Source: Candidatus Saccharimonadota bacterium (GTDB lineage: Archaea; Nanohalarchaeota; Nanosalinia; Nanosalinales; Nanosalinaceae). Taken from it: a stretch of DNA of 32,000 nucleotides. The stretch is from NCBI GenBank assembly GCA_001761425.1, contig CP012986.1:450001-482000 (forward strand). Direction: 5' to 3'. A model generated the notes under the pieces. It did not search any database. It saw only the letters and a list, made by a program, of their open reading frames with translations, and had not been told where the DNA came from. The translations under genes and the position numbers were made by a program. This document shows positions 5,932-27,249 of the stretch, one piece after another; positions within the stretch are counted from its first letter, which is position 1; every line of letters begins with the position of its first letter.

Positions 5932-6666
5932 TTATTCCTGGCTGATTTCTTCTGTGTAGACTTCTGGGGGTATCTCATGGCTTCCTAAAGTGTTTTTCGT
6001 GATGTTCCAGTCGTCGTGCTGGTTTATAAGGTGTCTGATGCTTTTTTCGTCTCTGGGATATTTTACTGTCCGGAAATCTCTGTCTTGATCGATTAAGGCA
6101 CCTCTCTCATCGCCCATAGGTTCTTCTGGGATCTGGATTTCACTGCTGTACTGTATCAGGTTTGCCTGCTTCGTCTGAGGCCAGTAAGCTATTAGTTCAA
6201 CTCCTCTGATATCGGGAAAAGCATTTAGAGAAGTGCTACTTATTTCTTCTCCTATTCTGTCTATGTCACGGACTCTGCCTTCGTTATAAAATACCAGTGA
6301 GAAAGAGGAGTCTGCTACAGAACTGTTCATATCTTCGATCTCCCTCATAGCGTTCAGACGTTCTTCTCCAGGCCTGAGACTTGCGGGGACGGCCTCCCGC
6401 TGATATACAGGAACCTCGCCCGGATCTGGAACTTCTTCTTTTCCTTCTTGTTTCTTCTCCAGCCAGACATCCTCGTTGATATACTCGAAACCTAGGTAGG
6501 CCTCATCCATATCATCTAGGATTTCATCGACAGAAAAACCTCTGAAACGCTGATTATCCTCAACGTTCCTGGGCTTATCTAAAATATAGATCCTGTTAGG
6601 TTCGTAGCCAAACTTTCTCCGCTCATCTTCCGAGGGGTAGGCCTCGCCTTCAAAAGCAGTCTCCAT
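5932..6666 (-). CDS. hypothetical acidic protein
   Basis: 244-aa ORF with composition like its neighbours. No motif recognised. Confidence 0.5.
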   Translation of the reverse strand: METAFEGEAYPSEDERRKFGYEPNRIYILDKPRNVEDNQRFRGFSVDEILDDMDEAYLGFEYINEDVWLEKKQEGKEEVPDPGEVPVYQREAVPASLRPGEERLNAMREIEDMNSSVADSSFSLVFYNEGRVRDIDRIGEEISSTSLNAFPDIRGVELIAYWPQTKQANLIQYSSEIQIPEEPMGDERGALIDQDRDFRTVKYPRDEKSIRHLINQHDDWNITKNTLGSHEIPPEVYTEEISQE

Positions 6667-8975: not shown

Positions 8976-9725
8976 TCAGGCCTCTACCTCACAAGGCCTA
9001 TACCTGTCGAAGATGAAAGGCCTATCTCCGTTAAAACCGACGAAATCCATTGCCAGGATCTTCAGAATGCCTACACGCGGAATCTTGAAGAAAACCTTTC
9101 CATGGACCTGTTCAGGCCTTACATCCTGCTCGAACTCTAGCTGTGAAGGATTGTTGATACCTTTAGTCTCCAGATCTGTTTCATGCTTCTTCACTACTCT
9201 GTGGACCACCGGTATCGGCATTGTATCGATCCTTTCGATATCCACATTGATTCCATTGAACGAATAGCTCTGATCCTCATCTACTGCTTTTTTCTCCCCG
9301 TCTACACGAATTGAGGCTCTATCCATATCCTCAGAAACTCTTCCAGCCTTCAACAGGCCTACCTCTCCTACAGGAGTATCCACTGAGGGCCTTGGATTTG
9401 AATCATTTCTTACGAGACTGTAGTCCTGACCTGCTATAGAGAAATCTACTCGGTCAGGAACGTTATAGACGATAGTATCGCCCTCACTGATTTTTTCGAA
9501 TGCTGTGCCTTTCACAAAAAGAATATCTCCCTTGTAAAGGCCTTCCTCGCCTGGTCCTGGATACATAGAACATGATACAACAGAAACCACGGGCTGATCG
9601 GTGTTCAGAGCTGTCCCTGTTGTCTGAAGAGTTCCGAAAGCAAGGATCAAAGCTATAGCCAGAAAGTAAACATTACTGAAGACTTCATTCTCTGTAAGAT
9701 CTCTCCAGAACTCAGGTAGCTCCAT
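8976..9725 (-). CDS. signal peptidase I (archaeal/Sec11 type, S26B) with a large insertion
   Basis: N-terminal TM segment. Ser box VVSCSMYP, GDILFV, His box PVVHRVV, and TKGINN in place of TKGDNN. About 100 extra residues lie between the Ser and His boxes. Confidence 0.65.
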   Translation of the reverse strand: MELPEFWRDLTENEVFSNVYFLAIALILAFGTLQTTGTALNTDQPVVSVVSCSMYPGPGEEGLYKGDILFVKGTAFEKISEGDTIVYNVPDRVDFSIAGQDYSLVRNDSNPRPSVDTPVGEVGLLKAGRVSEDMDRASIRVDGEKKAVDEDQSYSFNGINVDIERIDTMPIPVVHRVVKKHETDLETKGINNPSQLEFEQDVRPEQVHGKVFFKIPRVGILKILAMDFVGFNGDRPFIFDRYRPCEVEA

Positions 9726-12987: not shown

Positions 12988-13995
12988 ATGACTCTTATTG
13001 AAGCTGAAAACCTGGACAAGACCTTCAGAATATACAACCAGGGAGAAGGCCTTAGAGGCTACCTGAAAAGCTTTGTCAGCCGTGATTATGAAGAGATTCA
13101 TGCTGTCGAGGACCTGGATCTGGAGATCAGCGAGGGAGAGATGATCGGTTACATCGGGGCTAATGGTGCCGGAAAATCTACTACGGTCAAGATGCTGACC
13201 GGTATCCTTGAGCCTTCTTCAGGCCTGATAGAGGTCGATGGCAGGAACCCGCATGAAAACAGGAAGAAAAATGCGATGAATATTGGAGTGGTATTCGGAC
13301 AGAAGACACAGCTCTGGTGGGATCTGCCGGTGAAGGAAAGTTTCAGGCTTTTGAAAGAGATTTACGAAGTTTCGGATGAGGCCTATGATGAGAGGATCGA
13401 AGAGTTCGATGAAGTTTTACAGCTAAGTGATTTCTGGGATCAGCCTGTTAGAAAGCTCAGTCTGGGCCAGAAGATGAGATGTGAGCTTGCTGCAGCGTTT
13501 TTACATCATCCTAAGATTGTCTACCTGGATGAACCGACTATAGGCCTTGATGTAGCAGTTAAAGAACGTATCAGAGATTTTATCAGGAAGATGAACGAGG
13601 AGAAGAGTATCACGGTGATGTTGACAACGCATGATATCGGGGATATTGAGGATCTGTGTGACAGAATTGTTGTACTTGATGGAGGAAAGAAGATCTACGA
13701 TGGTCAGTTAGATGATCTGGTTGACCGTTTCTCGTCAAGGAGGCTTGTACTTGAGACGGATGACTGGATAGAGATCGAGGCCGATGGTGTGAAAGATATT
13801 CAGAAGCCGAACGGCCAGGTCGAGATAGTGTTCGACAGGGATATTATCTCCGCTGCTGACCTGATGCGTGAAGTGCTTGAGAAATACGATGTCAGCGACT
13901 TCCAGATCAAGGAGCCGGATATCGAAGCTGTTGTCAAGAAAATCTACAACGAAGGCCTTGCGGACAGAAGCAGTCAGGAAGCTGATGCTTCTTAG
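12988..13995 (+). CDS. ABC transporter ATP-binding protein (ABC-2/COG4586-like)
   Basis: Walker A GANGAGKST, signature LSLGQKMR, Walker B VYLDEPTIGLD, H-loop TTHD. Confidence 0.9.
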   Translation: MTLIEAENLDKTFRIYNQGEGLRGYLKSFVSRDYEEIHAVEDLDLEISEGEMIGYIGANGAGKSTTVKMLTGILEPSSGLIEVDGRNPHENRKKNAMNIGVVFGQKTQLWWDLPVKESFRLLKEIYEVSDEAYDERIEEFDEVLQLSDFWDQPVRKLSLGQKMRCELAAAFLHHPKIVYLDEPTIGLDVAVKERIRDFIRKMNEEKSITVMLTTHDIGDIEDLCDRIVVLDGGKKIYDGQLDDLVDRFSSRRLVLETDDWIEIEADGVKDIQKPNGQVEIVFDRDIISAADLMREVLEKYDVSDFQIKEPDIEAVVKKIYNEGLADRSSQEADAS

Positions 13996-14034
13996 ATGAA
14001 AATTCTGTAGAGATTTTTCGAGGAGTGATTATTC

Positions 14035-14817
14035 TTGGGTAAATATCTGGAGTTCGTCCGGATGGGATTCCGGGAGATGACAGCTTACAGGTTTAACGCG
14101 GTGATGTCGCTGGTCGCATCGATTCTCTACCTGGTAATGGTCTATGCTATCTGGACGGCGATCGATGCATCTGGCCAGCTTGCAGTACCGCTCTCAGGAG
14201 TCCTAACATACGTACTTCTTGGACAGGTAGTATCTAACTCTGTCTTTACAGATGTAGAAGGCTACTTATCGGAAAGGGTGCGTGAAGGAACTATAGTAAA
14301 TGAACTGAAAAGGCCTGTATCCCTCAGGCTTCAGATCTACTGCTACCTGATTGGAAAAACACTTTTCAATACTTTGACGAAAGGTCTTCCGGTACTGGTT
14401 ATAGGCCTTCTGTTCCTTGATATGCAGACGCCTTCAATGTTGAATGCTGTAGGTTTTGTGGTTGCTCTGCTTCTCAGTTTTAACCTCGTGTTTGCTTTCT
14501 CGTTCCTGACCTCTATGCTGGTTTTCTGGACGGAGATTGGCTGGGGTATCAGAGCTATGAGGTCTAATATCCAGGACGTGTTTTCAGGTGTTCTTTTCCC
14601 GCTATACCTGTTGCCTGCGAGAGTTGCTTACTTCTTTGATTTACTTCCTTTCCAGGCGATGGCTGATGGACCTATCAGGATCTTTACGATGGATGCGACA
14701 GGCATGCAGATGCTTAATATCTTCGGTTTACAGATTTTCTGGATAATCATAATCGCGGTACTGGGCGAGCTTGCCTGGAGAAAAGCCAAGAAAAAGATGA
14801 CGGTGCAGGGAGGATAG
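14035..14817 (+). CDS. ABC-2 family permease (type A, copy 1)
   Basis: Polytopic membrane protein. TTG start preceded by GGAG. Paralog of 15690-16484; shared segments include GTIVNELKRPV, SMLVFWT and KMTVQGG*. Confidence 0.8.
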   Translation: MGKYLEFVRMGFREMTAYRFNAVMSLVASILYLVMVYAIWTAIDASGQLAVPLSGVLTYVLLGQVVSNSVFTDVEGYLSERVREGTIVNELKRPVSLRLQIYCYLIGKTLFNTLTKGLPVLVIGLLFLDMQTPSMLNAVGFVVALLLSFNLVFAFSFLTSMLVFWTEIGWGIRAMRSNIQDVFSGVLFPLYLLPARVAYFFDLLPFQAMADGPIRIFTMDATGMQMLNIFGLQIFWIIIIAVLGELAWRKAKKKMTVQGG

Positions 14818-14821
14818 AAAG

Positions 14822-15664
14822 ATGTCAGAAAATCAGAGATTTTCTATGAACCCGAAACGCATGTTGTCGGGATTAAAGAAGTATCTGTCGATTTACTGGT
14901 ACTACTTCAAACAGTACTGGAAAACAAGGCTTGTCTATAAAGGAGACTTCGCCGTAGGCTTTGTAGCTCAACTGGTGAACCTGGGAGCATCTCTTGCATT
15001 CCTTACACTGCTATTTACGCAGGTTGACTCGATTAACGGCTGGAGTTTCAACGAGATGCTTTTCCTCGCCGGAATAGGAGGCTTTATCATGAATTTCCAC
15101 CACATCTTCCTGTTCAACATGTTCAGCCTGGAAGACTACGTGGTAGAAGGCAAGATGGATCGCTTCCTGGTAAGGCCTCTAAGTCCTCTGTTCCAGGTCT
15201 ACTCGGACGAGGTGTCGGATAACAATCTCTCGAAGCTGATAGCAAACTCTGCGCTGATAACTTATTCGGCGAATCAGCTAAGCCTTCAGCTTCTCACGGT
15301 TTCAAACCTGATCTATGGTGCAGCTTTTCTTATTTCAGGAGTTTTAGTCTTTGCAGCGGCTTATATGGCCTTTGCAGCCACGAGTTTCTGGACAGGGAAA
15401 AGCAGGAGCGCTATCTGGCTGATTTTCAGGCTTAGCGAGTACAGGAGATACCCTTACAGTATCTACTCCACAGCGATACAGATTGTACTTGTAACGTTGA
15501 TTCCGATAGCTTTTGCCTCGTTCTTCCCGGCAACTTACTTCCTTGGAAGAGAGGGCTGGAGAACATGGCAGTTAGCCTCTATCGCCGCAGGACCAGTACT
15601 TTTCCTGCTCTCCTACAGGTTCTGGAAGATAGGCCTCTACAATTACTCCAGCACAGGTAGTTAA
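14822..15664 (+). CDS. ABC-2 family permease (type B, copy 1)
   Basis: Polytopic membrane protein. GGGAGG Shine-Dalgarno inside the end of the upstream gene. Paralog of 16488-17294; shared segments include NGWS..E.LFLAG, RF.VRPL..LFQVY and YSSTGS*. Confidence 0.8.
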   Translation: MSENQRFSMNPKRMLSGLKKYLSIYWYYFKQYWKTRLVYKGDFAVGFVAQLVNLGASLAFLTLLFTQVDSINGWSFNEMLFLAGIGGFIMNFHHIFLFNMFSLEDYVVEGKMDRFLVRPLSPLFQVYSDEVSDNNLSKLIANSALITYSANQLSLQLLTVSNLIYGAAFLISGVLVFAAAYMAFAATSFWTGKSRSAIWLIFRLSEYRRYPYSIYSTAIQIVLVTLIPIAFASFFPATYFLGREGWRTWQLASIAAGPVLFLLSYRFWKIGLYNYSSTGS

Positions 15665-15689
15665 AATTGCTGTTGGAAAAAACTGTCCT

Positions 15690-16484
15690 GTGAAATCGAA
15701 AACTGCGAAATACTGGGAGCTGACCAAGATAGGGTTCAAGGAGGCCTCAGCCTATCGACTGGACGCAGTTACAGGCCTCGCTTCCTCACTCCTGTATATA
15801 ATCCTGTACTACTACATCTGGCAGGCAATAGCCGCAGCGGGAACGCTAGCCTCCAGTTTGTCCGCAGTCATGACCTATATCGTTGTTGCACAGGTAGTAT
15901 CGTCTACAGTGTTCATCAGCGTGGAGGGATTTATAGGAAGGAAGGTAAGACATGGAACGATAGTCAATGAATTGAAAAGACCGGTAACATTGTTCACACA
16001 GGCCTATTTCAGGAAACTCGGTGTCGCAGCGTTCCGCTCAGTGACCAGAGGCCTGCCTGTACTTGTCCTTGGTATCTTTTTCCTCCAGGTACCTGTGCCT
16101 CAAGGCTTTAACCTTGTTTATTTCTTTCTGAGCCTTTTACTGGCTTTGAATCTTGTTATACTGTTTTCCTACAGCGCTTCGATGCTGGTTTTCTGGACGA
16201 AAGTGGAGTGGAGTATCAGAGGGGTCAGGAACACAGTGCAGAAGCTTTTTTCTGGAGTGATTTTCCCGCTTTACCTCCTGCCTGAAGGCCTTTCCACGGT
16301 TTTCAGTATTTTGCCTTTCAGGTACATGGTTGATGGCCCGATTCAGATATTCCTGATGCAGAGAACAGGCCTTGAAGCTGTCAAAATGCTGGGGCTTCAG
16401 TTTGTCTGGGTAATTGTACTGTTTGGACTTGCACGTTTTATGTGGAAAAAGGCTAAGGCTAAAATGACGGTTCAGGGAGGCTAA
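15690..16484 (+). CDS. ABC-2 family permease (type A, copy 2)
   Basis: GTG start. Roughly half of residues are shared with 14035-14817 by eye. Confidence 0.8.
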   Translation: MKSKTAKYWELTKIGFKEASAYRLDAVTGLASSLLYIILYYYIWQAIAAAGTLASSLSAVMTYIVVAQVVSSTVFISVEGFIGRKVRHGTIVNELKRPVTLFTQAYFRKLGVAAFRSVTRGLPVLVLGIFFLQVPVPQGFNLVYFFLSLLLALNLVILFSYSASMLVFWTKVEWSIRGVRNTVQKLFSGVIFPLYLLPEGLSTVFSILPFRYMVDGPIQIFLMQRTGLEAVKMLGLQFVWVIVLFGLARFMWKKAKAKMTVQGG

Positions 16485-16487
16485 AGT

Positions 16488-17294
16488 ATGTTGGATGAAG
16501 TTAAACATCACTGGCAGGTCTACAGGAGCTTCTTCATCGCTTTTGTGAAGACTAAGCTGATCTATAAAACAGATTTCATCCTTGGAACTTTGAATCAGTT
16601 GGTCAGCCTTACAGCCTCTGTCGCGTTCATAGGCCTTATTTTCACACAGATTGAGAGCCTGAATGGCTGGAGTATCTACGAACTGCTGTTTTTAGCAGGG
16701 GTTTCAAGACTGATTCTGAATGTCCATGGTTTCTTCGGTTTCGGGCCTTTCTCCCTAGGCGAGCACTACATCGTGCGCGGAAGGCTTGACAGGTTCAAGG
16801 TAAGGCCTCTTAACGTCCTTTTCCAGGTGTATGGAAGCTATGTCCAGACACACGCTTTTTCCGACATCGTGGCAAGCATTTTCCTGATAGCTTACACCCT
16901 GCCCTATCTTGGTGTCACGGTAATCACGCCTCTCAACATGGTCTATTTCCTGTTCGCGGTTGTCAGCGGTGTTCTGACGATTGGCGCAGTATTTCTCGCC
17001 TTCGCCTCGACAGGTTTCTGGACTGGTAGAACTGAATCCCTTTTCCAGATATTCTTCGACCTTGCCAGCTTCAGAAAATATCCGCTTACAATCTACTCGG
17101 CACCGTTGAAGGCCTTTTTCACAGTCCTGTTTCCAGTAGCCTTTGCTTCTTTTTACCCTGTGACTTTTTTGCTTGGAAAAGAAAGCTCCGCATTTCTGGA
17201 GTTTGCGACGCTTTTCGTGGGGCCTGTATTTTACCTGGCAGCATATGGTTTCTGGAGGTATGGCCTTTCGAAGTATTCGAGTACCGGTAGCTGA
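16488..17294 (+). CDS. ABC-2 family permease (type B, copy 2)
   Basis: Paralog of 14822-15664, with GGGAGG upstream of the ATG. Confidence 0.8.
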   Translation: MLDEVKHHWQVYRSFFIAFVKTKLIYKTDFILGTLNQLVSLTASVAFIGLIFTQIESLNGWSIYELLFLAGVSRLILNVHGFFGFGPFSLGEHYIVRGRLDRFKVRPLNVLFQVYGSYVQTHAFSDIVASIFLIAYTLPYLGVTVITPLNMVYFLFAVVSGVLTIGAVFLAFASTGFWTGRTESLFQIFFDLASFRKYPLTIYSAPLKAFFTVLFPVAFASFYPVTFLLGKESSAFLEFATLFVGPVFYLAAYGFWRYGLSKYSSTGS

Positions 17295-17296
17295 TT

Positions 17297-17818
17297 TCAA
17301 GGCCTGTGCTGGGCGTCTATTCTTACTTCTGTGGCTTTTTTCTTGATTTCCAGGTCGAACTGGAAGCTGCCGTCTTCGCTTCCCAGTACGTACATGTCTG
17401 TGCCTTCAAGAGGTGTTCCCATGTATGTGACGTTTACAGAGCACTCCATCTCGTAACAGGCGTACGGATCTGAGGTTCCCTCAAATTTCAGGCAGAGGTA
17501 ATCGCCTCTAGCAGTTTCCTGTTCCGATACATAGTTAGGGATTTCCGGAGGAGGATTGCTCTTGGATTCAGATGCGTATATGCCTCTTACACCGCTGAAA
17601 GAGATTTTTTCTGTCGTCATCGAGCCTTCGCCCCTGGAGCAGTATAGGTCTGCTGTATTCCTGACGTTCTCGAATCTGTCGACTACATCGTTCCTTCCGC
17701 TGGTTTCTCCGACAGATACAAGGCTCTGAAAGGTCATGGTAAAGGTCAGCATCGCTACTACAAGGCCTCCAATTATCCAGATCCAGATTGAGGTAGAAAG
17801 GCCTTTTGAGTTTAACAT
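17297..17818 (-). CDS. type IV pilin-like protein (class III signal peptide); last gene of the operon
   Basis: N-terminus is MLNSKG/LSTSIWIWIIGGLVVAMLTF: a basic-Gly cleavage motif followed by a hydrophobic helix. Confidence 0.6.
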   Translation of the reverse strand: MLNSKGLSTSIWIWIIGGLVVAMLTFTMTFQSLVSVGETSGRNDVVDRFENVRNTADLYCSRGEGSMTTEKISFSGVRGIYASESKSNPPPEIPNYVSEQETARGDYLCLKFEGTSDPYACYEMECSVNVTYMGTPLEGTDMYVLGSEDGSFQFDLEIKKKATEVRIDAQHRP

Positions 17819-18297
17819 AGGATCACCTCTTTTCCAGTCCCTGTGAACGATATGCTATCTCCAGGTCTGTATATTATATCAGATTCTTCTTTTCCGAAGG
17901 TGAGGCCTGTCAGCCTGAGATCTTTTGCGGAGGCACAGTCCTGCCTGTAGAACAGAAGTAGTTCTCCTGAACTATCTTCGAGGCCCCATTTCCTTGCTTT
18001 AGATTCTATCATGTTCTTTTCAACTGTGAAATCTGCTGTTAATGTCTGTTCCTCCAGGTCACAGGAGTTTTTTAGCCGGTAGTAGGTTATCTGGTAGAAT
18101 TCCTGACGGTCTATTTTTTCTCCGGTGCTGTAGTCAGAGCAGTAGGGATAATCGACTTGAGGGTACACGTTTTCCAGGTTTATCTCCGTTTCTGAGGCCT
18201 CTTCTTCCAGGTTTGTGATGATTTGGAGGCCTATTCCTGTCATTATCATGACGATTATCAGGGCAGCTATCTGTTCCAGGCTCAGCTGGCCCTTCAT
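17812..18297 (-). CDS. type IV pilin-like protein (class III signal peptide)
   Basis: N-terminus is MKG/QLSLEQIAALIIVMIMTGIGL, with the QxSxE pattern typical of archaeal pilins. It overlaps neighbouring genes by 4-7 nt. Confidence 0.7.
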   Translation of the reverse strand: MKGQLSLEQIAALIIVMIMTGIGLQIITNLEEEASETEINLENVYPQVDYPYCSDYSTGEKIDRQEFYQITYYRLKNSCDLEEQTLTADFTVEKNMIESKARKWGLEDSSGELLLFYRQDCASAKDLRLTGLTFGKEESDIIYRPGDSISFTGTGKEVILC

Positions 18298-18713
18298 TTC
18301 TCCACTATCACCTTTTGGGAGGCTACCTCGTACTGGATGATGATGGAGTCTCTGTCGTATGTCGAGGCCTTGAACTCGACTTTCTCTGCTGTATCTTCAT
18401 TGAGCTCGTTTTCTATCTCCGAGCTTTCCAGGTCAAAGCTTCCGGAGTCAATTCTTGCGATGAAACAGGAGAGGTCTTCATATCCTTGTTCTAGGCTTCT
18501 CTGGTGGCAGAGTGTTATCAGGTTGGCGACTTTGCTGAGGCTGTTGCTGGATTCTACCTGTACGATTTCAAGGCCTGGATCGTCGTTGCCGTTTCCAGGT
18601 GTTGGTGTGGTGTTGTTTATCTGGTCTCTGAACTCTGTTATCATTCCGATTGATACTGCTATGACTACTAGTATTATGACAAGTTTGCCTATGTAGTCCA
18701 GTGACATTGCCAT
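18294..18713 (-). CDS. small secreted or membrane protein with an atypical pilin-like N-terminal helix
   Basis: MAMSLDYIGKLVIILVVIAVSIGMITEF. There is no clear [KR]G site, but a single N-terminal hydrophobic helix is present. Confidence 0.45.
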   Translation of the reverse strand: MAMSLDYIGKLVIILVVIAVSIGMITEFRDQINNTTPTPGNGNDDPGLEIVQVESSNSLSKVANLITLCHQRSLEQGYEDLSCFIARIDSGSFDLESSEIENELNEDTAEKVEFKASTYDRDSIIIQYEVASQKVIVEK

Positions 18714-18714
18714 C

Positions 18715-19266
18715 TTATTCGACCTCCACTCGTTGTGTGCCGGTTGTTGAAGTGTTGTATTCTATAACTATGAAGTCATCGGCAGTTATCTCTTCTCTCT
18801 CGAAATAAACCTGGTTGGACGAACCGCACGTCTCGCCGCTTCCGGACTCTAAAGCACTGTTCTCTATAGCCTCCGGGCATAGATCGTTCTCCGCAAGCTC
18901 TGAGGTGAAATCGCTTTCCGTGACAGTGTCCGGGAGGCCTTTTACATTCCAGCCCTCGCAGAACTCTGAGGTGTTGTAACCCTGGTACTGGTCGTAGCAG
19001 GATGTCACGGCGTTAGAAAGCCTGAGGTTGAATTCTTCGGCACTATCAGCCTCGATAACCTGGTAATCGACGGTACGGCCTTCACCACATCCTTTTGGAG
19101 GAGGAGAGTCCTTACCTGGGAACACGACACTGATACTATCGTAAGTGTCGCAGAAGATACCGCTTGAACCGCCGTAGTTTGAGGAAAAAGCGGCCAGGAG
19201 TACAGAGACGCCGACCAGTGCCAGTGTCATACCTCCTATAACCTTGATCCCCAGGCCTTTGCTCAT
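18715..19266 (-). CDS. type IV pilin-like protein (class III signal peptide), Cys-containing
   Basis: N-terminus is MSKG/LGIKVIGGMTLALVGVSVLLAAF. Confidence 0.6.
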   Translation of the reverse strand: MSKGLGIKVIGGMTLALVGVSVLLAAFSSNYGGSSGIFCDTYDSISVVFPGKDSPPPKGCGEGRTVDYQVIEADSAEEFNLRLSNAVTSCYDQYQGYNTSEFCEGWNVKGLPDTVTESDFTSELAENDLCPEAIENSALESGSGETCGSSNQVYFEREEITADDFIVIEYNTSTTGTQRVEVE

Positions 19267-19318
19267 AAACTGTTATCAGTACCGCTCGATTTTAAGGTTT
19301 CCATAGAAAGGAGAAAAG

Positions 19319-20221
19319 TTAAGGTGTTACAGTCATATCATAGGCAATCCAGCGACAGTTCTCAGGAACACTTGAGTCATCGCAGGCCCAGATAAACAGG
19401 CCGTAGCCACCAGGTGAAAGAGAGGAAACATTCAGCGAGGCCTTGGCTCTGAAAAGGTTTCTCTCCGTACTTCCTGTTCCCACAGCTTCTCTGGGAGAAG
19501 TTAGTTCTTCACTTTCAACATCTATGACTTCCTTGGATGAAGGAACAGGCCTCTCCATAGCAAATGCTTCTGTAAGGCCTAAATTATCTCCTATGTCGAT
19601 ACTAACCGTACCGTCCTCTGATTCTACTTCTTCAGTGTCTGATACCGGGCATGAAAGGCTTTCGCATGGATCTTTGGAGGCTTCGAAGTCGTATTCTTTG
19701 ATGCATCCTTTGCTGTCGGTCTCAGGGTTTCCGTCGCCGTCAGGGTCAAATCCAGGCCCGCAAGCTGTCCGGCAACTGCACTGTGTGCTGAAGCATGTAT
19801 CGCCCCGTGAAGGCCTGCAGATGCTGAGTGTCGATATGTTTACTGAGTTGTCTACAGGCCTGTAGGTGACTTTTACGCTGCTTTCGCCTTCTGGTATTTT
19901 TCCCTGGAATCCGAAGTTTTCTTCCGGTATTTTTTCTAGCATGTCGGATATGTTTTTCTCCGATACTGTATCGTTTGAGTATATCTTGGCCTTGAAACAG
20001 TCGTCCTGTGTTGAACGGCTTCCTTTACCTGACTGGCGCCAGCAGCTCTCAACCAGTCTTGCCATATCATCTGAGATCTCGTACACTCCGCCTGAGACTG
20101 TCTGATCCTCATCTTTTGGGAGGCTGACCTGATCCAGGCTTATATAAGCGGTAGAGACTGTTATGAAAACTATTCCGAGAATCCCGATCACCATAATCGT
20201 ATCAGAGATCTCACCTTTCAC
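19319..20221 (-). CDS. type IV pilin-like protein with a Cys-rich module and a DxDGDG motif
   Basis: N-terminus is MKG/EISDTIMVIGILGIVFITV. Contains CSCRTACGPGFDPDGDGNPETDSKGC. Confidence 0.65.
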   Translation of the reverse strand: MKGEISDTIMVIGILGIVFITVSTAYISLDQVSLPKDEDQTVSGGVYEISDDMARLVESCWRQSGKGSRSTQDDCFKAKIYSNDTVSEKNISDMLEKIPEENFGFQGKIPEGESSVKVTYRPVDNSVNISTLSICRPSRGDTCFSTQCSCRTACGPGFDPDGDGNPETDSKGCIKEYDFEASKDPCESLSCPVSDTEEVESEDGTVSIDIGDNLGLTEAFAMERPVPSSKEVIDVESEELTSPREAVGTGSTERNLFRAKASLNVSSLSPGGYGLFIWACDDSSVPENCRWIAYDMTVTP

Positions 20222-22728
20222 CGGAAGCTCACCCCCTCAGAAGGACTGTAACGTACCAGTACCTCGTGGCTCCCAGGCCTCAAAGTGAAATCCTCTACAT
20301 TGTCAGATCTCAATGCGACGCAGCTATCGCTGTTTGAGTAACACAGTGTTCTCTTCTCCACTTCTTCTACCTTCCCTATCTCGACCTGTGTAAAATTGTG
20401 GTAGAAAGGACCGAGGCCTCCAAGCTCAATGTATCTTTCTTCGCCCTCTGAGGCCTGTATATGATCGGGGTTGATGGTCTGTGTTTCTCCACATCCGTTC
20501 ACACATGAGAGTTCGAGTTCAGGGAGTTTAAGGCTGGGTGCGACAGTGTTCAAAGCTATCACCTGGATGCTTGCACCTTGGTAGGCCTTGAACTGGTTAT
20601 CTTCATCTGAGAAATCGATTTTGGAAGGTGACTGATCCCGGTCCTGGAAGACTGTCCTGCCGTTTACACCTATCATCAGGTCGTCTTCTATATCAACTTC
20701 TGTATTTCCATTGCTCTGAAGCTGGTAGGTCGTTTTCTCATCTCTTTCGATCTCTCTTGATTCGATTTCAAGGGTCTCGTCGTTGTTGATATCTGCGTAG
20801 ACTGTTACGTTTTCCCCAAATTTATTTCCGTTGGATATGGCCTTGTTGATCGCTCCGGCAAGTTTTTCCAGACTGCCTTTCCTCAGTGTTATATCAACGC
20901 TGGCAGGGGTAGTCAGTTTATCCGACTGCCTCACAGAAGCCGGGAAACGGGAAGTAAGTGAGGCCTCAAGATTTGATCCTTCTGAACCTTTTTTCTCGCC
21001 GAAACTGTATGTAACATTGTTACATGTTGCTGCGGTCTCCGAATCTCTCTCTGAAAGGCCTGAGAACTGCTCCTCAAACTTCTCCGGTATATCGTTTGTG
21101 TTCTGATACTCTATACTGTTACCTCCTGTGTTTAAGGAGACACGGCTCATAAGCTCTTTGGCATCATTCTTATCGTTATCTCCGTACTCATCGGTATCGC
21201 TGTACTCCATATCTCCTGACATCGTGTAGACGTTCACGCTCTTGTTCGCAGACAGTTCTGTCACGTTATGGACAATCTCCGTCTCGTTATCAAGAATCTC
21301 AGTTCCTTTCTTATCTCTGAAGGCCTCTCCAGAACTGTTACCTCCAGTAGGGTCCTGATCGCCGAGTAAAAACAGCATCCGGCGGTCAACGCTTTGGTTC
21401 CAGTCGTGGTTCTCAAGTATCCATTTAGAGGAGACGCCCCAGGCCTCAAGACCGTAATCCTTCGAGCTGTTATAATCTGTAAGGCCTTCGCCGCTCCACT
21501 CTGTGATTCCTTTTCCGTGAGTGCCTGTGGCTGCGTTGTTCTCGTCTGCGGAGACGCATGAAGGTACTCTGTCGCTAAAGTCGTAGTTTCCTCCTGAAAT
21601 CTGCATTGGGTTGCCTTTTCCGCTGTCAGGGGCTTCAGGCTGACCTGGTATGTAGTAACTTACGTTCGTTTTAAGGCCTCTGGCCTCCATTTTATCTACT
21701 GTGCTTGTTACTTTGTCACATAGGGCTTCCCATTCTTCATCGAAGTTGTCCGAGGCATCTGCTGTGACTGCGATCTGTGCTGTACCGTTGTACTGTGTGA
21801 CGGGAGGTACTGTGCAGGTGCTTTTTCCTCCTATGAATTTTTCCTCTCCTGCGATTTCTTCAAAGACTGATGAGTAGTCTGCTGTGACTTCGAATCTTTT
21901 TCCTTCAGTTATCTCTGCTATATCCACGTAGGCGCCTGCTCTATCGGATACAGTGTAGATCTCAACATTTTCGTTTGCTGCTTCTTCCGCCCATTCCGTT
22001 ACGTGCTTTGAAGTCGCCTTATCTGAAGTTGCAGGTTCTGTAGCAAGTATTATCAGTATCTTTCTCTTGCTGTCGTCGAAATCGAAATTATTCAATGTGT
22101 ACTGGATGGCCTTGTCCTCAGGCTCGGAGCCTCCGTTAATGGATATAGAGGCCAGCTCTGAGTTTACCTTGGACACTTCTTCTGTCAAATCAACCCTGTT
22201 ACTGATATAACTGCCAGGAGGTGTTGCGTAAGTGAATATACCGACTCTGCTCCCTTCAGGAAGCGCATCGATGAACTCCCGCGTGTTATCTTTAACCTTG
22301 TTGAGGTAGCTTCCCATGCTTCCGCTGTCATCTAGTGCAAAGACTACATCAGCTGCCTTAGTGGTCTCAGCTGGCTCAACCCCTCTCAGGTAATCCTGCT
22401 CCACCTTGACCTCGAAACCGTTCACAAAATTCTCCGCACATCCTGGCTCACGAAGATTATAATTCCTGTCCATCCTCTCCAGCTTTGTCTGATTCAACAG
22501 AAAGCTACTGCCGGAAACGCCTTCATCTACGGAAAGACATTCTGCAACAGCACTGAAATCCTCACTGGGTGAGGCCTGAAACTTTACCTGGCTCCGGTCC
22601 TCGCTAACACCTATATTGAAGTTTAGAGAACTCATGAGAAGAGACATCAGCAATCCACCGAATATCATGATCAGTATCGGCTTCATAAAAGTGCTGTACT
22701 GTCCCTTCCAGGTCCTATAAAGTCTCAT
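20218..22728 (-). CDS. large (836 aa) pilin-like protein with von Willebrand factor A domain(s); candidate tip adhesin
   Basis: N-terminus is MRLYRTWKG/QYSTFMKPILIMIFGGLLMSLLM. The MIDAS motif is DVVFALDDSGSMG (nt 22315-22350). A second, degenerate vWA-like module has IAVTADASDNF ... RRMLFLLGDQDPTGG ... VNVYTMSGD. Confidence 0.75.
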   Translation of the reverse strand: MRLYRTWKGQYSTFMKPILIMIFGGLLMSLLMSSLNFNIGVSEDRSQVKFQASPSEDFSAVAECLSVDEGVSGSSFLLNQTKLERMDRNYNLREPGCAENFVNGFEVKVEQDYLRGVEPAETTKAADVVFALDDSGSMGSYLNKVKDNTREFIDALPEGSRVGIFTYATPPGSYISNRVDLTEEVSKVNSELASISINGGSEPEDKAIQYTLNNFDFDDSKRKILIILATEPATSDKATSKHVTEWAEEAANENVEIYTVSDRAGAYVDIAEITEGKRFEVTADYSSVFEEIAGEEKFIGGKSTCTVPPVTQYNGTAQIAVTADASDNFDEEWEALCDKVTSTVDKMEARGLKTNVSYYIPGQPEAPDSGKGNPMQISGGNYDFSDRVPSCVSADENNAATGTHGKGITEWSGEGLTDYNSSKDYGLEAWGVSSKWILENHDWNQSVDRRMLFLLGDQDPTGGNSSGEAFRDKKGTEILDNETEIVHNVTELSANKSVNVYTMSGDMEYSDTDEYGDNDKNDAKELMSRVSLNTGGNSIEYQNTNDIPEKFEEQFSGLSERDSETAATCNNVTYSFGEKKGSEGSNLEASLTSRFPASVRQSDKLTTPASVDITLRKGSLEKLAGAINKAISNGNKFGENVTVYADINNDETLEIESREIERDEKTTYQLQSNGNTEVDIEDDLMIGVNGRTVFQDRDQSPSKIDFSDEDNQFKAYQGASIQVIALNTVAPSLKLPELELSCVNGCGETQTINPDHIQASEGEERYIELGGLGPFYHNFTQVEIGKVEEVEKRTLCYSNSDSCVALRSDNVEDFTLRPGSHEVLVRYSPSEGVSFR

Positions 22729-22734
22729 TATTTT

Positions 22735-23418
22735 TCAGGCCTCTATCTTGACTTTTCCGGAGAGCAGGAACAGGCCTATCAGTACTGCAGCTATTACTAT
22801 CGCTATCAGCAGGTAGTTGCTGTAGTCACTGTCCACTACTTCCTTTGTCTGATCCTCGGTACTGCTTTCAGTGTTTTCAGAACTTTCAGGCTGTGAACAG
22901 TCTTCTGGACATAGTTCCTGCTCATTCGTTGACTTCTGGCAGATTTCGTCGCCACAGGTACAGTCAACGTCTACCTCCTTTCCGTCGCAGTAAGATGTGC
23001 ATGTGTTGTCAAAGTCGCAGCAAAGGTTATCTTTCAGGTTGTAGGAGGCCTTTTCCTCGTCTTCGTAGAAGATTTTGATCTCTGTTATGTTTTTCTGGTA
23101 TTCGAGGAACAGGTTTTTCTGTATCTCTTCTTTCTCTGTTTCATAGCCTCCTTCGCTGGTCCTGACATGGTTGGTGAAGCTGATAGGAACTTTTCCATCT
23201 ATCTCGGTTTTTTTATCTGTGCTTAAGGCCTTTATGCTGAAGTTTGCTCCTACGTGTCTTAACGCTGTGGTTCTTGTTGCATCGAGGATTTTTACATTGT
23301 TTATTTTTGCGCTTTCATTGTCGTAGAAGGTTGCATCTACCAGGAACTTTTTTTCTGCGCTGGCTGCTCCTGTTAACAGTGCTAGAGCTGTTATTAGTAT
23401 CAGTATTTTTGTTTTCAT
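22735..23418 (-). CDS. Sec-secreted, C-terminally membrane-anchored Cys-rich protein
   Basis: Sec-type signal MKTKILILITALALLTGAASA/EKK. Has the Cys cluster CCDFDNTCTSYCDGKEVDVDCTCGDEICQ, an acidic S/T/E linker and the C-terminal TM segment YLLIAIVIAAVLIGLFLL. Confidence 0.65.
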   Translation of the reverse strand: MKTKILILITALALLTGAASAEKKFLVDATFYDNESAKINNVKILDATRTTALRHVGANFSIKALSTDKKTEIDGKVPISFTNHVRTSEGGYETEKEEIQKNLFLEYQKNITEIKIFYEDEEKASYNLKDNLCCDFDNTCTSYCDGKEVDVDCTCGDEICQKSTNEQELCPEDCSQPESSENTESSTEDQTKEVVDSDYSNYLLIAIVIAAVLIGLFLLSGKVKIEA

Positions 23419-24825
23419 TTAGCATCCTCCTAGGTAACTATCAAATACGTCTTGCTCCATATATGAGTAACCTGCTGGCCCGTACTGGTTCCTCTGGTCT
23501 GAATAGGACATAAGAAAATTCCTTCTATCGCTTTCAGGTTCATTGCAGTCCTCGCTGTTAGGGCCTTGGCAGGCTCCGCCTTCGTTGTTTCCAGGTGTTG
23601 ATACGTGGTAGAGGCCTGTGGAGTGTCCTGTCTCGTGTGAAGCAGTCTCCACATCACAGGAAGAGTATGTCACGCTTACAGGGGATGGAATGTTCTGTGC
23701 TTTACCGCAGATCATCCCTGTCTGGCCATTGTAGGTTATCTGGGGGCCGTCGCCTTTCGCCAGGCCTATTATCTTGTTCCAGTTGCCTACACCTAACTGG
23801 CTGTTTGCACACTGTTTCATCTTGTTGAAACAGCTGTCTCCTGTGGACACATCGCAGTTATCTATGTTACAGCTGGATATGTCCAGAACTGTTTTCTTGA
23901 TATTATGGTCTGGGTTACTGCATTGTTTGAAAGGTGATTTGGAGACGAAATAATTGAAGGCATCCTCGGCGTCGCTCTCGAAATTCCCCTGATCGGAGTA
24001 ACGAGCCGGAGTGAACACCACATTGTACCTCTCATTGTCTTTGCATTCAGTCCCGTTCCAGGAACTTCCCTGGGGACAGCACCTGTCCCCGGAGACCCCA
24101 GAGGCTGTGTAGTGAGGCCCGCTGCAGGAAAGATCAGCGCTACACTCGAAGCTCTGACTGCATTTTTCCCCATCTGCCTGAACATCTGTATAACTTTTTT
24201 TCACACATCCAAGGCCTGTCGTATCCTCGCCTGAAGTATCAGCGTTGATGAAGTCCTCAGCTTCATAATCTGGGTCACAGACTTCTGAGGCCTCATCTGA
24301 TTCAGCATCGCCAGGGCATAGACAGTCTCCCTGGGAATTGCTACAGGTCTCGCCTTTATCCGGTTGGCAGATATCGTTCACACATCTACCGTCCGTACAG
24401 AAGTTGCTGAGGCCTCCTGAACCGCATTCGCCTTCACTGAAATTGACCTTTGAACCGGTTTTGCTGACACAGATCTGGTCAGAGTCGGAGACACGAGTGT
24501 TCTCAAGACGGTGATCCAGAAAAGTCGTTGAAGAACTTTCCTCCCCTGGAATCTTGACGACCACAGTTCTTTGCTCCTGGACTGTCAGGGTATAACTGTT
24601 TACGGAAGGTTCATAAGTCGTGGAGAAACTTCCTCCAGACTCAGGCAACCCGTTTATAACACTGGAAAGCTCCTGAGAGACCTGGTTCTGCGTCGAACTG
24701 AAAAGGCCTTCACTCTGCAAATCGATGATATTACCGCCGACGAAGACAAAAGCTACCGCTACCAAAATAGTGCCTATTGCAAGCAAGGCCTCAGATATTA
24801 TAGTCATTCCCCTAGAGCTATTCAA
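23419..24825 (-). CDS. pilin-like N-terminus fused to a Cys-rich region and a metzincin (M43/pappalysin-ulilysin-like) zinc protease domain
   Basis: N-terminus is MNSSRG/MTIISEALLAIGTILVAVAFVFV. HETGHSTGLYH is an exact HExxHxxGxxH (nt 23605-23637). A downstream NFLMSYSD resembles the NFM(D/S)Y Met-turn region. Confidence 0.7.
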   Translation of the reverse strand: MNSSRGMTIISEALLAIGTILVAVAFVFVGGNIIDLQSEGLFSSTQNQVSQELSSVINGLPESGGSFSTTYEPSVNSYTLTVQEQRTVVVKIPGEESSSTTFLDHRLENTRVSDSDQICVSKTGSKVNFSEGECGSGGLSNFCTDGRCVNDICQPDKGETCSNSQGDCLCPGDAESDEASEVCDPDYEAEDFINADTSGEDTTGLGCVKKSYTDVQADGEKCSQSFECSADLSCSGPHYTASGVSGDRCCPQGSSWNGTECKDNERYNVVFTPARYSDQGNFESDAEDAFNYFVSKSPFKQCSNPDHNIKKTVLDISSCNIDNCDVSTGDSCFNKMKQCANSQLGVGNWNKIIGLAKGDGPQITYNGQTGMICGKAQNIPSPVSVTYSSCDVETASHETGHSTGLYHVSTPGNNEGGACQGPNSEDCNEPESDRRNFLMSYSDQRNQYGPAGYSYMEQDVFDSYLGGC

Positions 24826-26095
24826 CTGTCTCCACCTCTGTCTGACATGTTGAAGCTGTCCCGCTGTATGAGCAGGATTTTATAGAGGATGGAAGCGTGC
24901 TGTAAGGCTGTGCGGAGCATGAGTAGCTTCCTCCACTAGCTGAGTTTTCATTTACCTGGAAGCTGAGATCTATCTTCCATTTAAGGTTTCCGAGAGTGCT
25001 GTTAGGGACGTTTTTGAACTTTTTGTCTCTGCAGGTGAGTGTGGTATCTATCTTTGAATTTATAGATAGGCTCCAGGACTTGATACAGTTATAGTCCCAC
25101 TGGGGTTCTACACAGTCTCCTGTTGAGTTTGTCTCTGCACAGCCACATCTTACTCCATTGCTGACGTTGTTCGCGCTTTCTCCCTCGTTCACGGTTACGA
25201 TGTGGCCCGGGAACTGGTTGCCGTTTTTCCTGTTCGACGTAAAGCTGCATTCGACGCTCGTATCGTTGAAGTATTCCTGGCTGCTTTCAAGTTTTTCTCT
25301 CTCTTCTGCTAGGCCTTCCACTACAGCTTGATCCATCAATGTGCCGTGATCGGAACACATCTTCGGGCTTGGATAGTTACATTTGGAAGGTCCTGTGATA
25401 CACATACTGTTGGTCCTGGACCCTTGATCTTTCACATTGCTGAGCTGGCTCACGACCTTGTTTTTCAGGTTCTCCTGGTTCACCCATTTCTTCAGAGTCG
25501 AGTAGATATACCAGTGTCTGTTGTACTTGATATCTTTCGACAGCGTAACACTTCTCTCACTGTTCTGAAGGCCTCCTGTCTCTCTGGTAAGGTTGATCGA
25601 TTCTATCTCAACTGCCTGTGTAAAGTTATCGCTGTCCTTTGAAGCAGGAAGCTCGTTGTGGCCAGTATCCAGACATGAGGCCTTACCTATGCTGTAAACG
25701 TTGCTGTCTCTTATTCCGTGCATTTCGTTGAATCTCTCTTGCATATAATCCAGGGTGAAGTTGGAGGTCGTGTTTCTGACAACCTCTACATCTGGTACCT
25801 GTGTAGAACCTCCGCAGTACCAGTAGCGGGCTTCCTGGTCTTCTGAGCGCCTTCCAGAGTAGTTTCCGGCTTTATCACTGCCTTTCTGACCTGCATAGAA
25901 GAGACTGTTTTCTAGATAGAGCCTTACGTTTTCAAAACGGTTGTTGAACGTGTTTACCTGTGACTGCTGGATGATCTCTTGCTGGACGCCTGTGCCAGAA
26001 CTGGTAGAGGCCTTGAACCAGGAGACAGCGATCAGAGAAATTACCAGGATAATGAAGACTGCTATGAGGGTGCTGGCGCCTTTTCTATCTACCAT
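24818..26095 (-). CDS. type IV pilin-like protein (425 aa), Cys-rich
   Basis: N-terminus is MVDRKG/ASTLIAVFIILVISLIAV. Confidence 0.65.
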   Translation of the reverse strand: MVDRKGASTLIAVFIILVISLIAVSWFKASTSSGTGVQQEIIQQSQVNTFNNRFENVRLYLENSLFYAGQKGSDKAGNYSGRRSEDQEARYWYCGGSTQVPDVEVVRNTTSNFTLDYMQERFNEMHGIRDSNVYSIGKASCLDTGHNELPASKDSDNFTQAVEIESINLTRETGGLQNSERSVTLSKDIKYNRHWYIYSTLKKWVNQENLKNKVVSQLSNVKDQGSRTNSMCITGPSKCNYPSPKMCSDHGTLMDQAVVEGLAEEREKLESSQEYFNDTSVECSFTSNRKNGNQFPGHIVTVNEGESANNVSNGVRCGCAETNSTGDCVEPQWDYNCIKSWSLSINSKIDTTLTCRDKKFKNVPNSTLGNLKWKIDLSFQVNENSASGGSYSCSAQPYSTLPSSIKSCSYSGTASTCQTEVETVE

Positions 26096-26598
26096 CTCTG
26101 TATCATAACCTCCGACCTGTTCCCAGTAGCCAGCGGAAACTCAAGAGTTGAAGAGATAACTTTCCCCGGGTTATCAGGTAATTCTTCGCCGATTACAATT
26201 TTTCTGTCAGAGCTATCTCCGCAGTCAGCGGTGAAACGATAATCCGTACCTAGTGACCTGTTAAGATAGGACTCAAGGAAAGTAACGGTCTCAACTCTGA
26301 GGCCTTCGGGTTCTGATATTTTGAATGCGTATCCTTCCTCTTTCTTACCGTAATCACAGGCCTGTGAGATAACCGTGGCGATCTTCATATTGTCCTCACG
26401 TGGAATAGGGAAAGAGCGTGTGTAAAGGCCTTTAAGCTCCATTTCAGAGTTGAAGGAAACGTCTGTGGTTACCAGTGTTTCCAGGTTCTGAGCCTGGTTG
26501 CCTGACTGAGTTACAAAGAGGAAAAGTGCAAAGATAGCAGTTAGAAGGACTCCTAGAAGGGTATACATGGAGCTGGCCTGGCCCTTCCCTGTATTCAT
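26089..26598 (-). CDS. type IV pilin-like protein
   Basis: N-terminus is MNTGKG/QASSMYTLLGVLLTAIFALFLFV. Confidence 0.65.
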   Translation of the reverse strand: MNTGKGQASSMYTLLGVLLTAIFALFLFVTQSGNQAQNLETLVTTDVSFNSEMELKGLYTRSFPIPREDNMKIATVISQACDYGKKEEGYAFKISEPEGLRVETVTFLESYLNRSLGTDYRFTADCGDSSDRKIVIGEELPDNPGKVISSTLEFPLATGNRSEVMIQRW

Positions 26599-26650
26599 GG
26601 TATTAGAAGAGTCTAGTTAGAATTTAAGGTATAGGCCTTCTATTGTTTTT

Positions 26651-27217
26651 TTATTCCCCCAGGCCCTGGAAGTTCTGGCTGTACCATGTGACTTCTTCTA
26701 TTTCATCTAGTCCGCAGGTACCGATGGTTTTGTCGCTTTCTCCGTTTGGTTGGTACCATTCTGCGATGCTGTTGTTTGCCTCTTCTTCAGACTGGCCTAC
26801 TTCTGAGGAAGTGTAATAGTTTTTCATTACTTCTTTGCATCTTTCTGCGTTTAGCTGTTCCTGTCCGATTTCGCATGTGTGGACGTTGAAGCATTTTACA
26901 CCGTCTTCGCAGTAAGAATTGTATAGTCTTCCGGCGGTTTCCGATAGTGTGCCGTCTCCGTCTGCGTCATAATTGAACGTGGAAGTACAGTAGTCTATTG
27001 CTGCTGTCTGACCTCTCACGCCCTGAGCCGACTTGTACTCAGAACACTTAGACTGACAGGTACGAGAAATCTCCTCCTGCTGCAAAGTATTCTCATACTG
27101 ATCACCAGGATTATCCTGGAACTGGTTTAGGAAGGTTGAGATTACGACGCCGGCCACGACAAGTAAAATTACAAGGCCTATTATCATTTCCAGCGACTTC
27201 TGTCCCTTCCTGAACAT
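26651..27217 (-). CDS. type IV pilin-like protein; first gene of the operon and a candidate major pilin
   Basis: N-terminus is MFRKG/QKSLEMIIGLVILLVVAGVVISTF (QxSxE pattern). It is Cys-rich with a YDADGDGTLSE motif. A TATA box lies upstream. Confidence 0.7.
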   Translation of the reverse strand: MFRKGQKSLEMIIGLVILLVVAGVVISTFLNQFQDNPGDQYENTLQQEEISRTCQSKCSEYKSAQGVRGQTAAIDYCTSTFNYDADGDGTLSETAGRLYNSYCEDGVKCFNVHTCEIGQEQLNAERCKEVMKNYYTSSEVGQSEEEANNSIAEWYQPNGESDKTIGTCGLDEIEEVTWYSQNFQGLGE

Positions 27218-27239
27218 AATTAACTAAACCGAAATCCTC

Positions 27240-27249
27240 TTTTTTATAT
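27240..27249 (-). promoter_or_regulatory. TATA box of the pilin-like operon
   Basis: The minus strand reads ATATAAAAAA, 23-32 nt upstream of the ATG at 27217. It lies in the 42-nt spacer after the gltX stop. Confidence 0.5.

Follow-up and report, generated by a model that had tools for sequence, protein, structure and literature searches.

What does a block of eleven genes, most of them encoding pilin-like proteins, build in Nanohaloarchaea archaeon SG9, and does it stand apart from any assembly machinery, as a first reading of its sequence had proposed? The block occupies about a third of the 32,000-nucleotide stretch of contig CP012986.1 analysed here (positions 450,001 to 482,000, referred to as the window). 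Nanohaloarchaeota and other DPANN lineages must physically touch a host cell, and little is known of the molecules through which they do so. From the comparisons described below, the block is probably the subunit operon of an archaeal type IV filament of the Epd, or "system 1", kind, and in relatives its machinery is found beside it.

The eleven open reading frames (ORFs) lie co-directionally on the minus strand from 17297 to 27217, where the original prediction had placed them, and they are as tightly packed as it described, adjacent genes overlapping by 4-8 nt or being spaced by 0-52 nt. The products range in size from 139 to 836 amino acids (aa) and contain 2-26 Cys each, compared with mostly 0-2 in the other proteins of the window, in agreement with the earlier description of them as Cys-rich. 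With a slash marking the expected cleavage site, the genes are:

26651..27217, minus strand: g1, 188 aa, MFRKG/QKSLE; candidate major pilin with 8 invariant Cys and a DGDG motif.
26089..26598, minus strand: g2, 169 aa, MNTGKG/QASS; small pilin-like protein, candidate minor pilin.
24818..26095, minus strand: g3, 425 aa, MVDRKG/ASTL; large pilin-like protein, rich in Cys (14), in which no known domain is recognised.
23419..24825, minus strand: g4, 468 aa, TTG start, MNSSRG/MTIISE; modular, its N-terminal part also present in g7, with 26 Cys in a Cys-rich middle part and a predicted C-terminal metzincin.
22735..23418, minus strand: g5, 227 aa; outside the class III set, with a Sec-type signal peptide, a Cys-rich domain and a transmembrane anchor at the C-terminus.
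20218..22728, minus strand: g6 (AQV86_02495), 836 aa, MRLYRTWKG/QYST; predicted modular pilin-like adhesin.
19319..20221, minus strand: g7, 300 aa, GTG start, MKG/EISD; pilin module homologous to the g4 N-terminus.
18715..19266, minus strand: g8, 183 aa, MSKG/LGIK; small pilin-like protein.
18294..18713, minus strand: g9, 139 aa, MAMSLDYIGKLVII; without a [KR]G leader.
17812..18297, minus strand: g10, 161 aa, MKG/QLSLE; small pilin-like protein with Gln+1 and Glu+5.
17297..17818, minus strand: g11, 173 aa, MLNSKG/LSTS; small pilin-like protein.

Related loci (given L numbers below) include contigs of g6 orthologs, of which 30 are known at full length (29-82% identity); a scan of metagenome contigs with the g3 alignment returned 6 loci. 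A corresponding scan of genome contigs with the g6 alignment was dominated by generic vWA motifs, and returned bacterial vWA proteins and no orthologs. The operon proved to be conserved among nanohaloarchaea, with orthologs of all 11 genes in L082, L084, L087, L088 and L090.

The feature that unites most of the products is a class III-type N-terminus, taken here as [KR]G in residues 1-9 and, after it, 19 residues whose mean Kyte-Doolittle hydropathy is at least 1.98. Nine of the 11 operon products have such an N-terminus and none of the 22 other ORFs in the window does; the [KR]G motif is moreover kept in orthologs of 30-80% identity, including those of the TTG-started g4 and the GTG-started g7. 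The nine leaders and hydrophobic helices counted earlier are therefore confirmed, and the view of these genes as a set of class III signal (type IV pilin-like) proteins is supported. Gln at position +1 (KG/Q) occurs in g1, g2, g6 and g10, and Glu at +5 in g1 and g10, with neither feature in g3, g4, g7, g8 and g11. Relatives of g1 repeatedly match the Class_IIIsignal model PF04021, with scores below threshold (12-19 bits, against a cut-off of 23.7 bits). As for the two products outside the set, g5 is conserved in all orthologous operons, and g9 has a conserved N-terminus ("SLDYxGK") whose helix aligns by profile with those of g10 and g8. It was also observed that the Joint Genome Institute (JGI) calls for g4 (462 aa; L088 14628-16016) and g6 (822 aa; L088 16749-19217) begin downstream of the conserved [KR]G leader; with starts placed too far downstream, the class III signal is absent from those database entries, and such misplaced starts may be a reason that pilins of this sort stay unannotated.

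Among the candidates for the major subunit, g1 appears the best. It is the first gene of the operon, it is tandemly duplicated (see below), its N-terminus is extremely conserved, and it stands behind the best TATA box of the block:

27240..27249, minus strand: TATA-like box ATATAAAAAA, ~28 nt before the g1 start codon (ATG).

The 25 N-terminal residues of mature g1 do not vary (100% identity) among orthologs in which the rest of the protein has 59-84% identity, and they still reach 76-92% identity where the rest has fallen to about 40%, a conservation far above that of the other operon families. An exhaustive search returned 213 cluster representatives of the g1 family, with the same KG[Q]xSLE N-terminus and eight invariant Cys. 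In the AlphaFold model (pLDDT, the predicted local distance difference test score, of 92), helices at residues 6-33 and 38-63 lead into a mostly helical head, and g1 would thus represent a pilin family with a confident model but without a solved structural relative. Structure searches of the predicted models with Foldseek, suggested at the outset for all of the mature domains, were run for g1 and g6 and gave opposite outcomes, g1 having no significant match in the Protein Data Bank (PDB) and g6 matching vWA structures.

Several of the larger products are modular. The parts distinguished in g6, and the zinc site of g4, are:

22534..22695, minus strand: g6 residues 12-65, predicted continuous 54-residue N-terminal alpha-helix (pilin alpha-1).
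21838..22353, minus strand: g6 residues 126-297, vWA domain 1, with the metal ion-dependent adhesion site (MIDAS) motif D133-x-S-x-S137.
21070..21783, minus strand: g6 residues 316-553, second alpha/beta (vWA-like) domain with a degenerate DASDN motif.
23605..23637, minus strand: g4 residues 397-407, zinc-binding motif HETGHSTGLYH, with a Met-turn (M439-S-Y441) further downstream.

Pfam alone gives a single VWA domain in g6 (PF00092, residues 127-278, 53 bits, 5e-14), whose D133 and S137 are invariant in 21 orthologs. In the AlphaFold model (pLDDT 73) the N-terminal helix is followed by a small beta module, the vWA domain, the alpha/beta domain and a beta-rich region at 572-836. The best PDB match by Foldseek is a protein with two vWA domains, PTMP1 (4cn9; E 8e-12 over 481 columns); the pilus tip adhesin SpaC is found lower down (9e-8), and more than 280 vWA matches lie at E <= 1e-3. 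The earlier assignment of a double-vWA protein is thus supported by structure prediction, and g6 is predicted to be a modular pilin in which a long N-terminal helix precedes tandem vWA domains.

In g4, residues H397, E398, H401, G404, M439 and Y441 are invariant in 5 orthologs, with H or D as the third zinc ligand. The match to Pfam Reprolysin_5 (24.6 bits) falls just under the 27-bit cut-off, an ortholog matches Reprolysin_2, and the weak PDB matches are all to metzincins. From the conserved HExxHxxGxx[HD] motif and the Met-turn (MSY), the C-terminal part of g4 is predicted to be a metzincin, in keeping with the fusion recognised earlier. The N-terminal ~160 residues of g4 are homologous to the N-terminus of g7 (hhalign probability 93%), and the C-terminal module of g7 varies by lineage, being a CARDB domain in L090 and split off as a 1,377-aa protein in L082. 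A pilin module joined to an independent functional module is accordingly found in both g6 and g4. L101 (2838-14967) holds an operon variant of another lineage, in which the platform and g1 genes are followed by genes for g8- and g11-like small pilins, next by those for proteins of 897 and 708 aa, and last by that for a Peptidase_S8 (subtilisin) protein; the part of the locus that was retrieved shows no metzincin, and the variant hints that the protease module is exchangeable.

On the matter of machinery, the original prediction holds for the window itself, which contains no T2SSE (ATPase), T2SSF (platform) or A24 (prepilin peptidase) gene, and fails for the locus in its relatives. All seven related loci examined, among them the one from the JGI assembly of this genome, encode a protein of 703-735 aa directly upstream of g1. 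Four of these proteins are similar over their full length to a 695-aa protein of L082 (24-27% identity, E down to 1e-81) that has two T2SSF domains above the Pfam threshold (44.7 bits), and since the g1-upstream protein itself also gives weak T2SSF matches, it is taken to be a TadC/PilC-type platform paralog. L082 and L100 share a further arrangement, with a T2SSE ATPase gene (769-778 aa) and another platform gene beside the g1-upstream gene in divergent orientation; L082 thus contains one ATPase gene (769 aa) and two platform genes (for T2SSF-like proteins of 695 and 714 aa). Further ATPase/platform pairs appear to lie together on contigs of 14.8-47 kb, as judged from equal contig sizes. The ATPase family is large, with 3,158 matches to the L082 protein, and includes members in the cultivated Ca. 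Nanohalobium constans, Ca. Nanohalovita haloferacivicina and Ca. Nanohalococcus occultus. Three nanohaloarchaeal T2SSE ATPases (P0102, P0193 and P0198) are of ~1,250 aa and contain the intein/LAGLIDADG Pfam domains PF14528 and PF14890, from which it follows that the pilus ATPase gene hosts an intein in some lineages.

Two window ORFs were considered as prepilin peptidase genes and rejected. The product of 5932-6666 is soluble and acidic, and that of 8976-9725 (minus strand, 249 aa) resembles a type I signal peptidase. The latter has no Pfam hit; judged by eye, its N-terminal anchor and the motifs SCSMYP, GDILFV and VVHRV suggest an enzyme of the Sec11/S26 type that contains a large insertion.

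The lack of a platform gene in the window can be traced to a single junction, located in the following feature:

26904..27178, minus strand: repeat common to two tandem g1 paralogs, the junction at which the window is without 7,457 bp relative to Ga0136257_100001.

JGI contig Ga0136257_100001 (1,125,078 bp; L088 and L092) is a second assembly of the same genome. Its glutamyl-tRNA synthetase (GluRS) protein is identical to that of the window and its operon 99.7% identical, and between GluRS and g1 it has 7,457 bp extra, flanked by two g1 copies. The order there is a g1 paralog (273 aa), the gene for a secreted protein of 710 aa, small ORFs, the gene for a pyrophosphatase, that for the platform (724 aa) and g1 itself (188 aa). 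The g1 of the window has its promoter and first codons (MFRKG) from copy 1 and its 3' half from copy 2; it is a hybrid of two paralogs, consistent with an exact database look-up of its protein that returned no record, and the 7,457 bp are absent from the window because its g1 joins the two tandem copies. An independent assembly (Logan) of run SRR2630167 agrees with the window at 100% identity over 16.7 kb, starting at 26903 and running downstream. The GluRS contig of this assembly stops at window position 27179 and the platform contig at the corresponding base of copy 2, and the operon contig begins in the copy-2 tail; breaks at both entries to the repeat are the signature of a two-copy repeat, and thus place the platform-to-g1 junction in the SRR2630167 reads. 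Within the hybrid gene, a patch of ~95 nt (~27031-27125, g1 codons ~33-62) shows ~25 mostly synonymous differences from both JGI g1 copies and from L090, with identical flanks, which suggests gene conversion or strain mosaicism. Within the segment that the window lacks (L088 4761-8068), three consecutive genes, for the 273-aa g1 paralog, the 710-aa protein (which has a Sec signal and internal repeats) and a lipoprotein-like protein of 92 aa, end in a common ~60-residue Cys motif (EWCQxN..G.A...GC...Y...C...YxCE) that could be a docking module.

The window is therefore either a repeat collapse or a deletion variant, and in either case "no machinery nearby" does not describe the locus. That the window is correct, SG9 or a sub-population having lost the 7.5-kb segment by recombination between g1 paralogs to leave an orphan operon served in trans or decaying, is somewhat unlikely. 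Tandem direct repeats of ~330 nt are natural substrates for deletion, the ~95-nt patch matches neither L088 g1 copy nor L090 so that the window g1 is no simple splice of the JGI copies, and the two 1.1-Mb genome versions differ overall by 6.5 kb. On the other hand, the reads that assemble to 100% identity with the window operon over 16.7 kb also hold the platform-to-g1 junction, with breaks at both repeat entries; the platform-to-g1 adjacency is kept in every relative; and all 11 ORFs are intact.

Whether the products are filament subunits is a separate matter, and several findings weigh against that reading. No operon protein matched a Pfam or NCBIfam pilin model above threshold; the strict FlaFind hexamer fits 5 of the 9 N-termini, a figure that is indicative only; and no A24 prepilin peptidase was found in the window or in any fetched locus, the search covering these loci only. 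The SG9 ATPase was not identified among the best 120 of the 3,158 family matches, and cultivated nanohaloarchaea are not visibly included among the 30 matches of the g6 family, which leaves that family with no experimental system. In the g1 model the helix is broken at residues 34-37, and the head is unlike those of solved pilins (best Foldseek E 1.7, PDB profile search empty). The failure of pilin models and the missing peptidase would suit ordinary uncleaved signal-anchor (type II) proteins or Sec substrates in a generic surface-protein island; this is nevertheless very improbable, as the [KR]G falls at the same position across nine non-homologous families and in orthologs of ~30% identity, Gln+1 and Glu+5 are present, the platform gene is always adjacent (with the ATPase gene too in some lineages), and g6 has a predicted 54-residue N-terminal helix. 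The main functional rival is a short, membrane-proximal pseudopilus or bindosome-like display, comparable to type II secretion system (T2SS) pseudopili or the Sulfolobus bindosome, that holds or pushes out the vWA, metzincin and Cys-rich heads. It would account for the many large "pilins" with functional heads and the few small ones, for a g1 head atypical of a fibre subunit, and for the conservation of the Sec-dependent, anchored partner g5, and archaeal PibD substrates do include non-pilus surface proteins (PMC4371748). Against it, the conservation of the g1 N-terminal helix and the tandem duplication of the gene are typical of a polymerising major subunit, and Epd-type relatives make real pili; such a display is considered improbable, if less so than simple signal anchors.

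For the preferred reading, a type IV filament, a working sequence of events may be proposed. A prepilin peptidase would cleave after the Gly, and the ATPase and platform would polymerise g1 as the major subunit, with the small g2 and g8-g11 as putative minor pilins for priming or capping it. Functional heads would be displayed at the tip or along the fibre by g3, g4, g6 and g7 as modular pilins, the vWA domains of g6 perhaps binding a haloarchaeal host-surface ligand through the MIDAS metal site and the g4 metzincin perhaps cutting a surface protein locally, while g5, a Sec substrate with a C-terminal anchor, may be an accessory membrane protein. A role in host attachment or envelope penetration is plausible. 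A more specific version would make this a "tip-armed" Epd-like pilus of four-disulfide helical-head pilins, in which a tandem-vWA adhesin at the tip grips the host S-layer and the metzincin opens it, so serving both attachment and envelope breaching, with swapped heads (CARDB, PKD-like, S8 protease) tuning host range; in this full form the proposal is speculative and on balance unlikely to be right.

The operon is a concrete, conserved and testable candidate for host contact, a probable type IV filament with a predicted metal-dependent adhesin and protease, and it extends to archaea the modular pilin principle documented in bacteria; evidence of a part in host contact or in breaching of the envelope would add greatly to its interest. 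There is also a practical point, in that a public SG9 sequence is without 7.5 kb that include the platform gene, and analyses using it would wrongly call the pilin operon orphaned.

The single promoter proposed originally requires amendment. The ATATAAAAAA box exists at its expected position, but in the full-length arrangement of L088 this promoter precedes the 273-aa g1 paralog and not the 188-aa g1, and there are two internal TATA-like elements:

26622..26630, minus strand: ACCTTAAAT, candidate internal TATA-like element upstream of g2.
19290..19298, minus strand: ACCTTAAAA, candidate internal TATA-like element upstream of g8.

The window contains 3 occurrences of the form ACCTTAAA[AT], where 0.52 would be expected, all of them on the strand of the operon. 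The 52-nt gaps, of which there are only two, hold one each, 26-34 nt before the start codon of g2 or g8, and these are candidate internal promoters by sequence; the third is at 24979-24987.

Evidence from the surroundings supports the earlier view that the operon is resident in the nanohaloarchaeon, with synteny conserved across relatives. Several related loci have it beside the same ABC-2 transporter and XPB-like helicase genes as the window, the remaining genes of which are archaeal housekeeping genes (e.g., PCNA, GINS, primase, eIF2-alpha and GluRS). The count of 46 AGGCCT copies in 17297-27249 was exact, and matches in density the rest of the window, where 151 copies against 8.2 expected (18-fold) are evenly spread at ~4.7 per kb; with the flanking synteny, this led to rejection of a mobile element or recent acquisition. 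The AGGCCT excess is lineage-specific, at 3.3 per kb in the 82%-identity relative L090 and 0.1-0.3 per kb in L082, L084, L087 and L095. The 6.9-kb segment absent from the window (L088 5300-12210) has 1.7 per kb. An ABC transporter operon on the plus strand (12988-17294) converges on the pilin operon and consists of one ATPase gene and four paralogous ABC-2 (PF06182) permease genes; relatives retain this neighbourhood with just two permease genes.

How, then, does the locus compare with known systems? The original prediction saw a closer likeness to bacterial Tad or T2SS sets than to described archaeal pili, and this was not borne out. Bacterial Tad (Flp, TadE/F/G) and T2SS operons likewise encode several pilin-like subunits with an ATPase of the CpaF/TadA type, and TadG-like proteins can carry vWA domains. 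No TadE/TadG, GspG-K or pseudopilin family was matched in Pfam or NCBIfam, however, the nearest being ComGE at E 0.033, far under the cut-off; there is no secretin or outer-membrane part, and the leader and cleavage motif are of the archaeal KG/Q type. The Epd, or "system 1", kind is closer.

Methanococcus Epd pilins have EppA-type KGQ cleavage sites (PMC4371748). The archaeal "system 1", reported in methanogens and DPANN, is described as combining a single ATPase and a pair of platform genes with numerous pilins and class III proteins of adhesin-like character; its Epd cluster comprises 11 genes (bioRxiv 10.64898/2026.04.22.720090). The SG9 locus and its relatives share with the Epd / "system 1" of Methanococcus maripaludis (PMC4858521; PMC4371748; bioRxiv 10.64898/2026.04.22.720090) a cluster of about 11 genes for many different pilins and adhesin-like class III signal proteins, KG/Q sites in four of the nine N-termini (two of these with Glu+5), and one ATPase with two platform genes (as seen here in L082 and L100). 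They differ in that g1 of SG9 has a 150-residue disulfide-rich head, whereas the primary Epd pilin is without a globular domain; unlike in Epd, the loci examined showed neither a gene for a short pilin without a head nor one for EppA. The platform proteins are two full-length paralogs of ~700 aa, PF04021 is matched only below threshold, and tandem-vWA and metzincin modules have not been described for Epd. The locus thus fits the Epd kind but misses some of its defining points, namely the headless primary pilin, EppA and an above-threshold PF04021.

For the modular subunits the nearest precedent is bacterial. Streptococcus sanguinis PilB, for which a role as tip-exposed adhesin is expected, likewise has a class III signal and an alpha-1 helix, onto which a vWA module with a MIDAS is grafted (PMC8179133). 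Bacterial modular pilins with peptidase modules, of the S74 and M26 families, also exist, in a survey that makes no mention of archaea (PMC8179133). In comparison g6 is archaeal, without the bacterial N-methylation motif signature, and has two vWA-like domains and beta-rich C-terminal domains, and the protease of the operon is a predicted metzincin.

Among nanohaloarchaea, one report on type IV pilus-like loci of cluster 2 DPANN describes CpaF-type ATPase and TadC genes in Ca. Nanohaloarchaeum antarcticus, with a proposed role in host interaction; coiled-coil proteins define these loci together with FlaF and PilA, and annotated pilins are noted to be lacking (PMC11291902). In DPANN "dark matter" islands, unannotated signal-peptide proteins by TadC were read, in general terms, as diverged pilins (PMC6393860). 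The SG9 operon in its full-length arrangement resembles these islands in the adjacency of signal-peptide proteins to TadC; the text and legends of PMC11291902 and PMC6393860 contain no vWA/metzincin pilin operon and no g1 family, and no description of such an operon was found in the literature searched. What is new here is an Epd-like operon that combines tandem-vWA and metzincin modular pilins, as predicted, with a structurally unmatched family of candidate major pilins.

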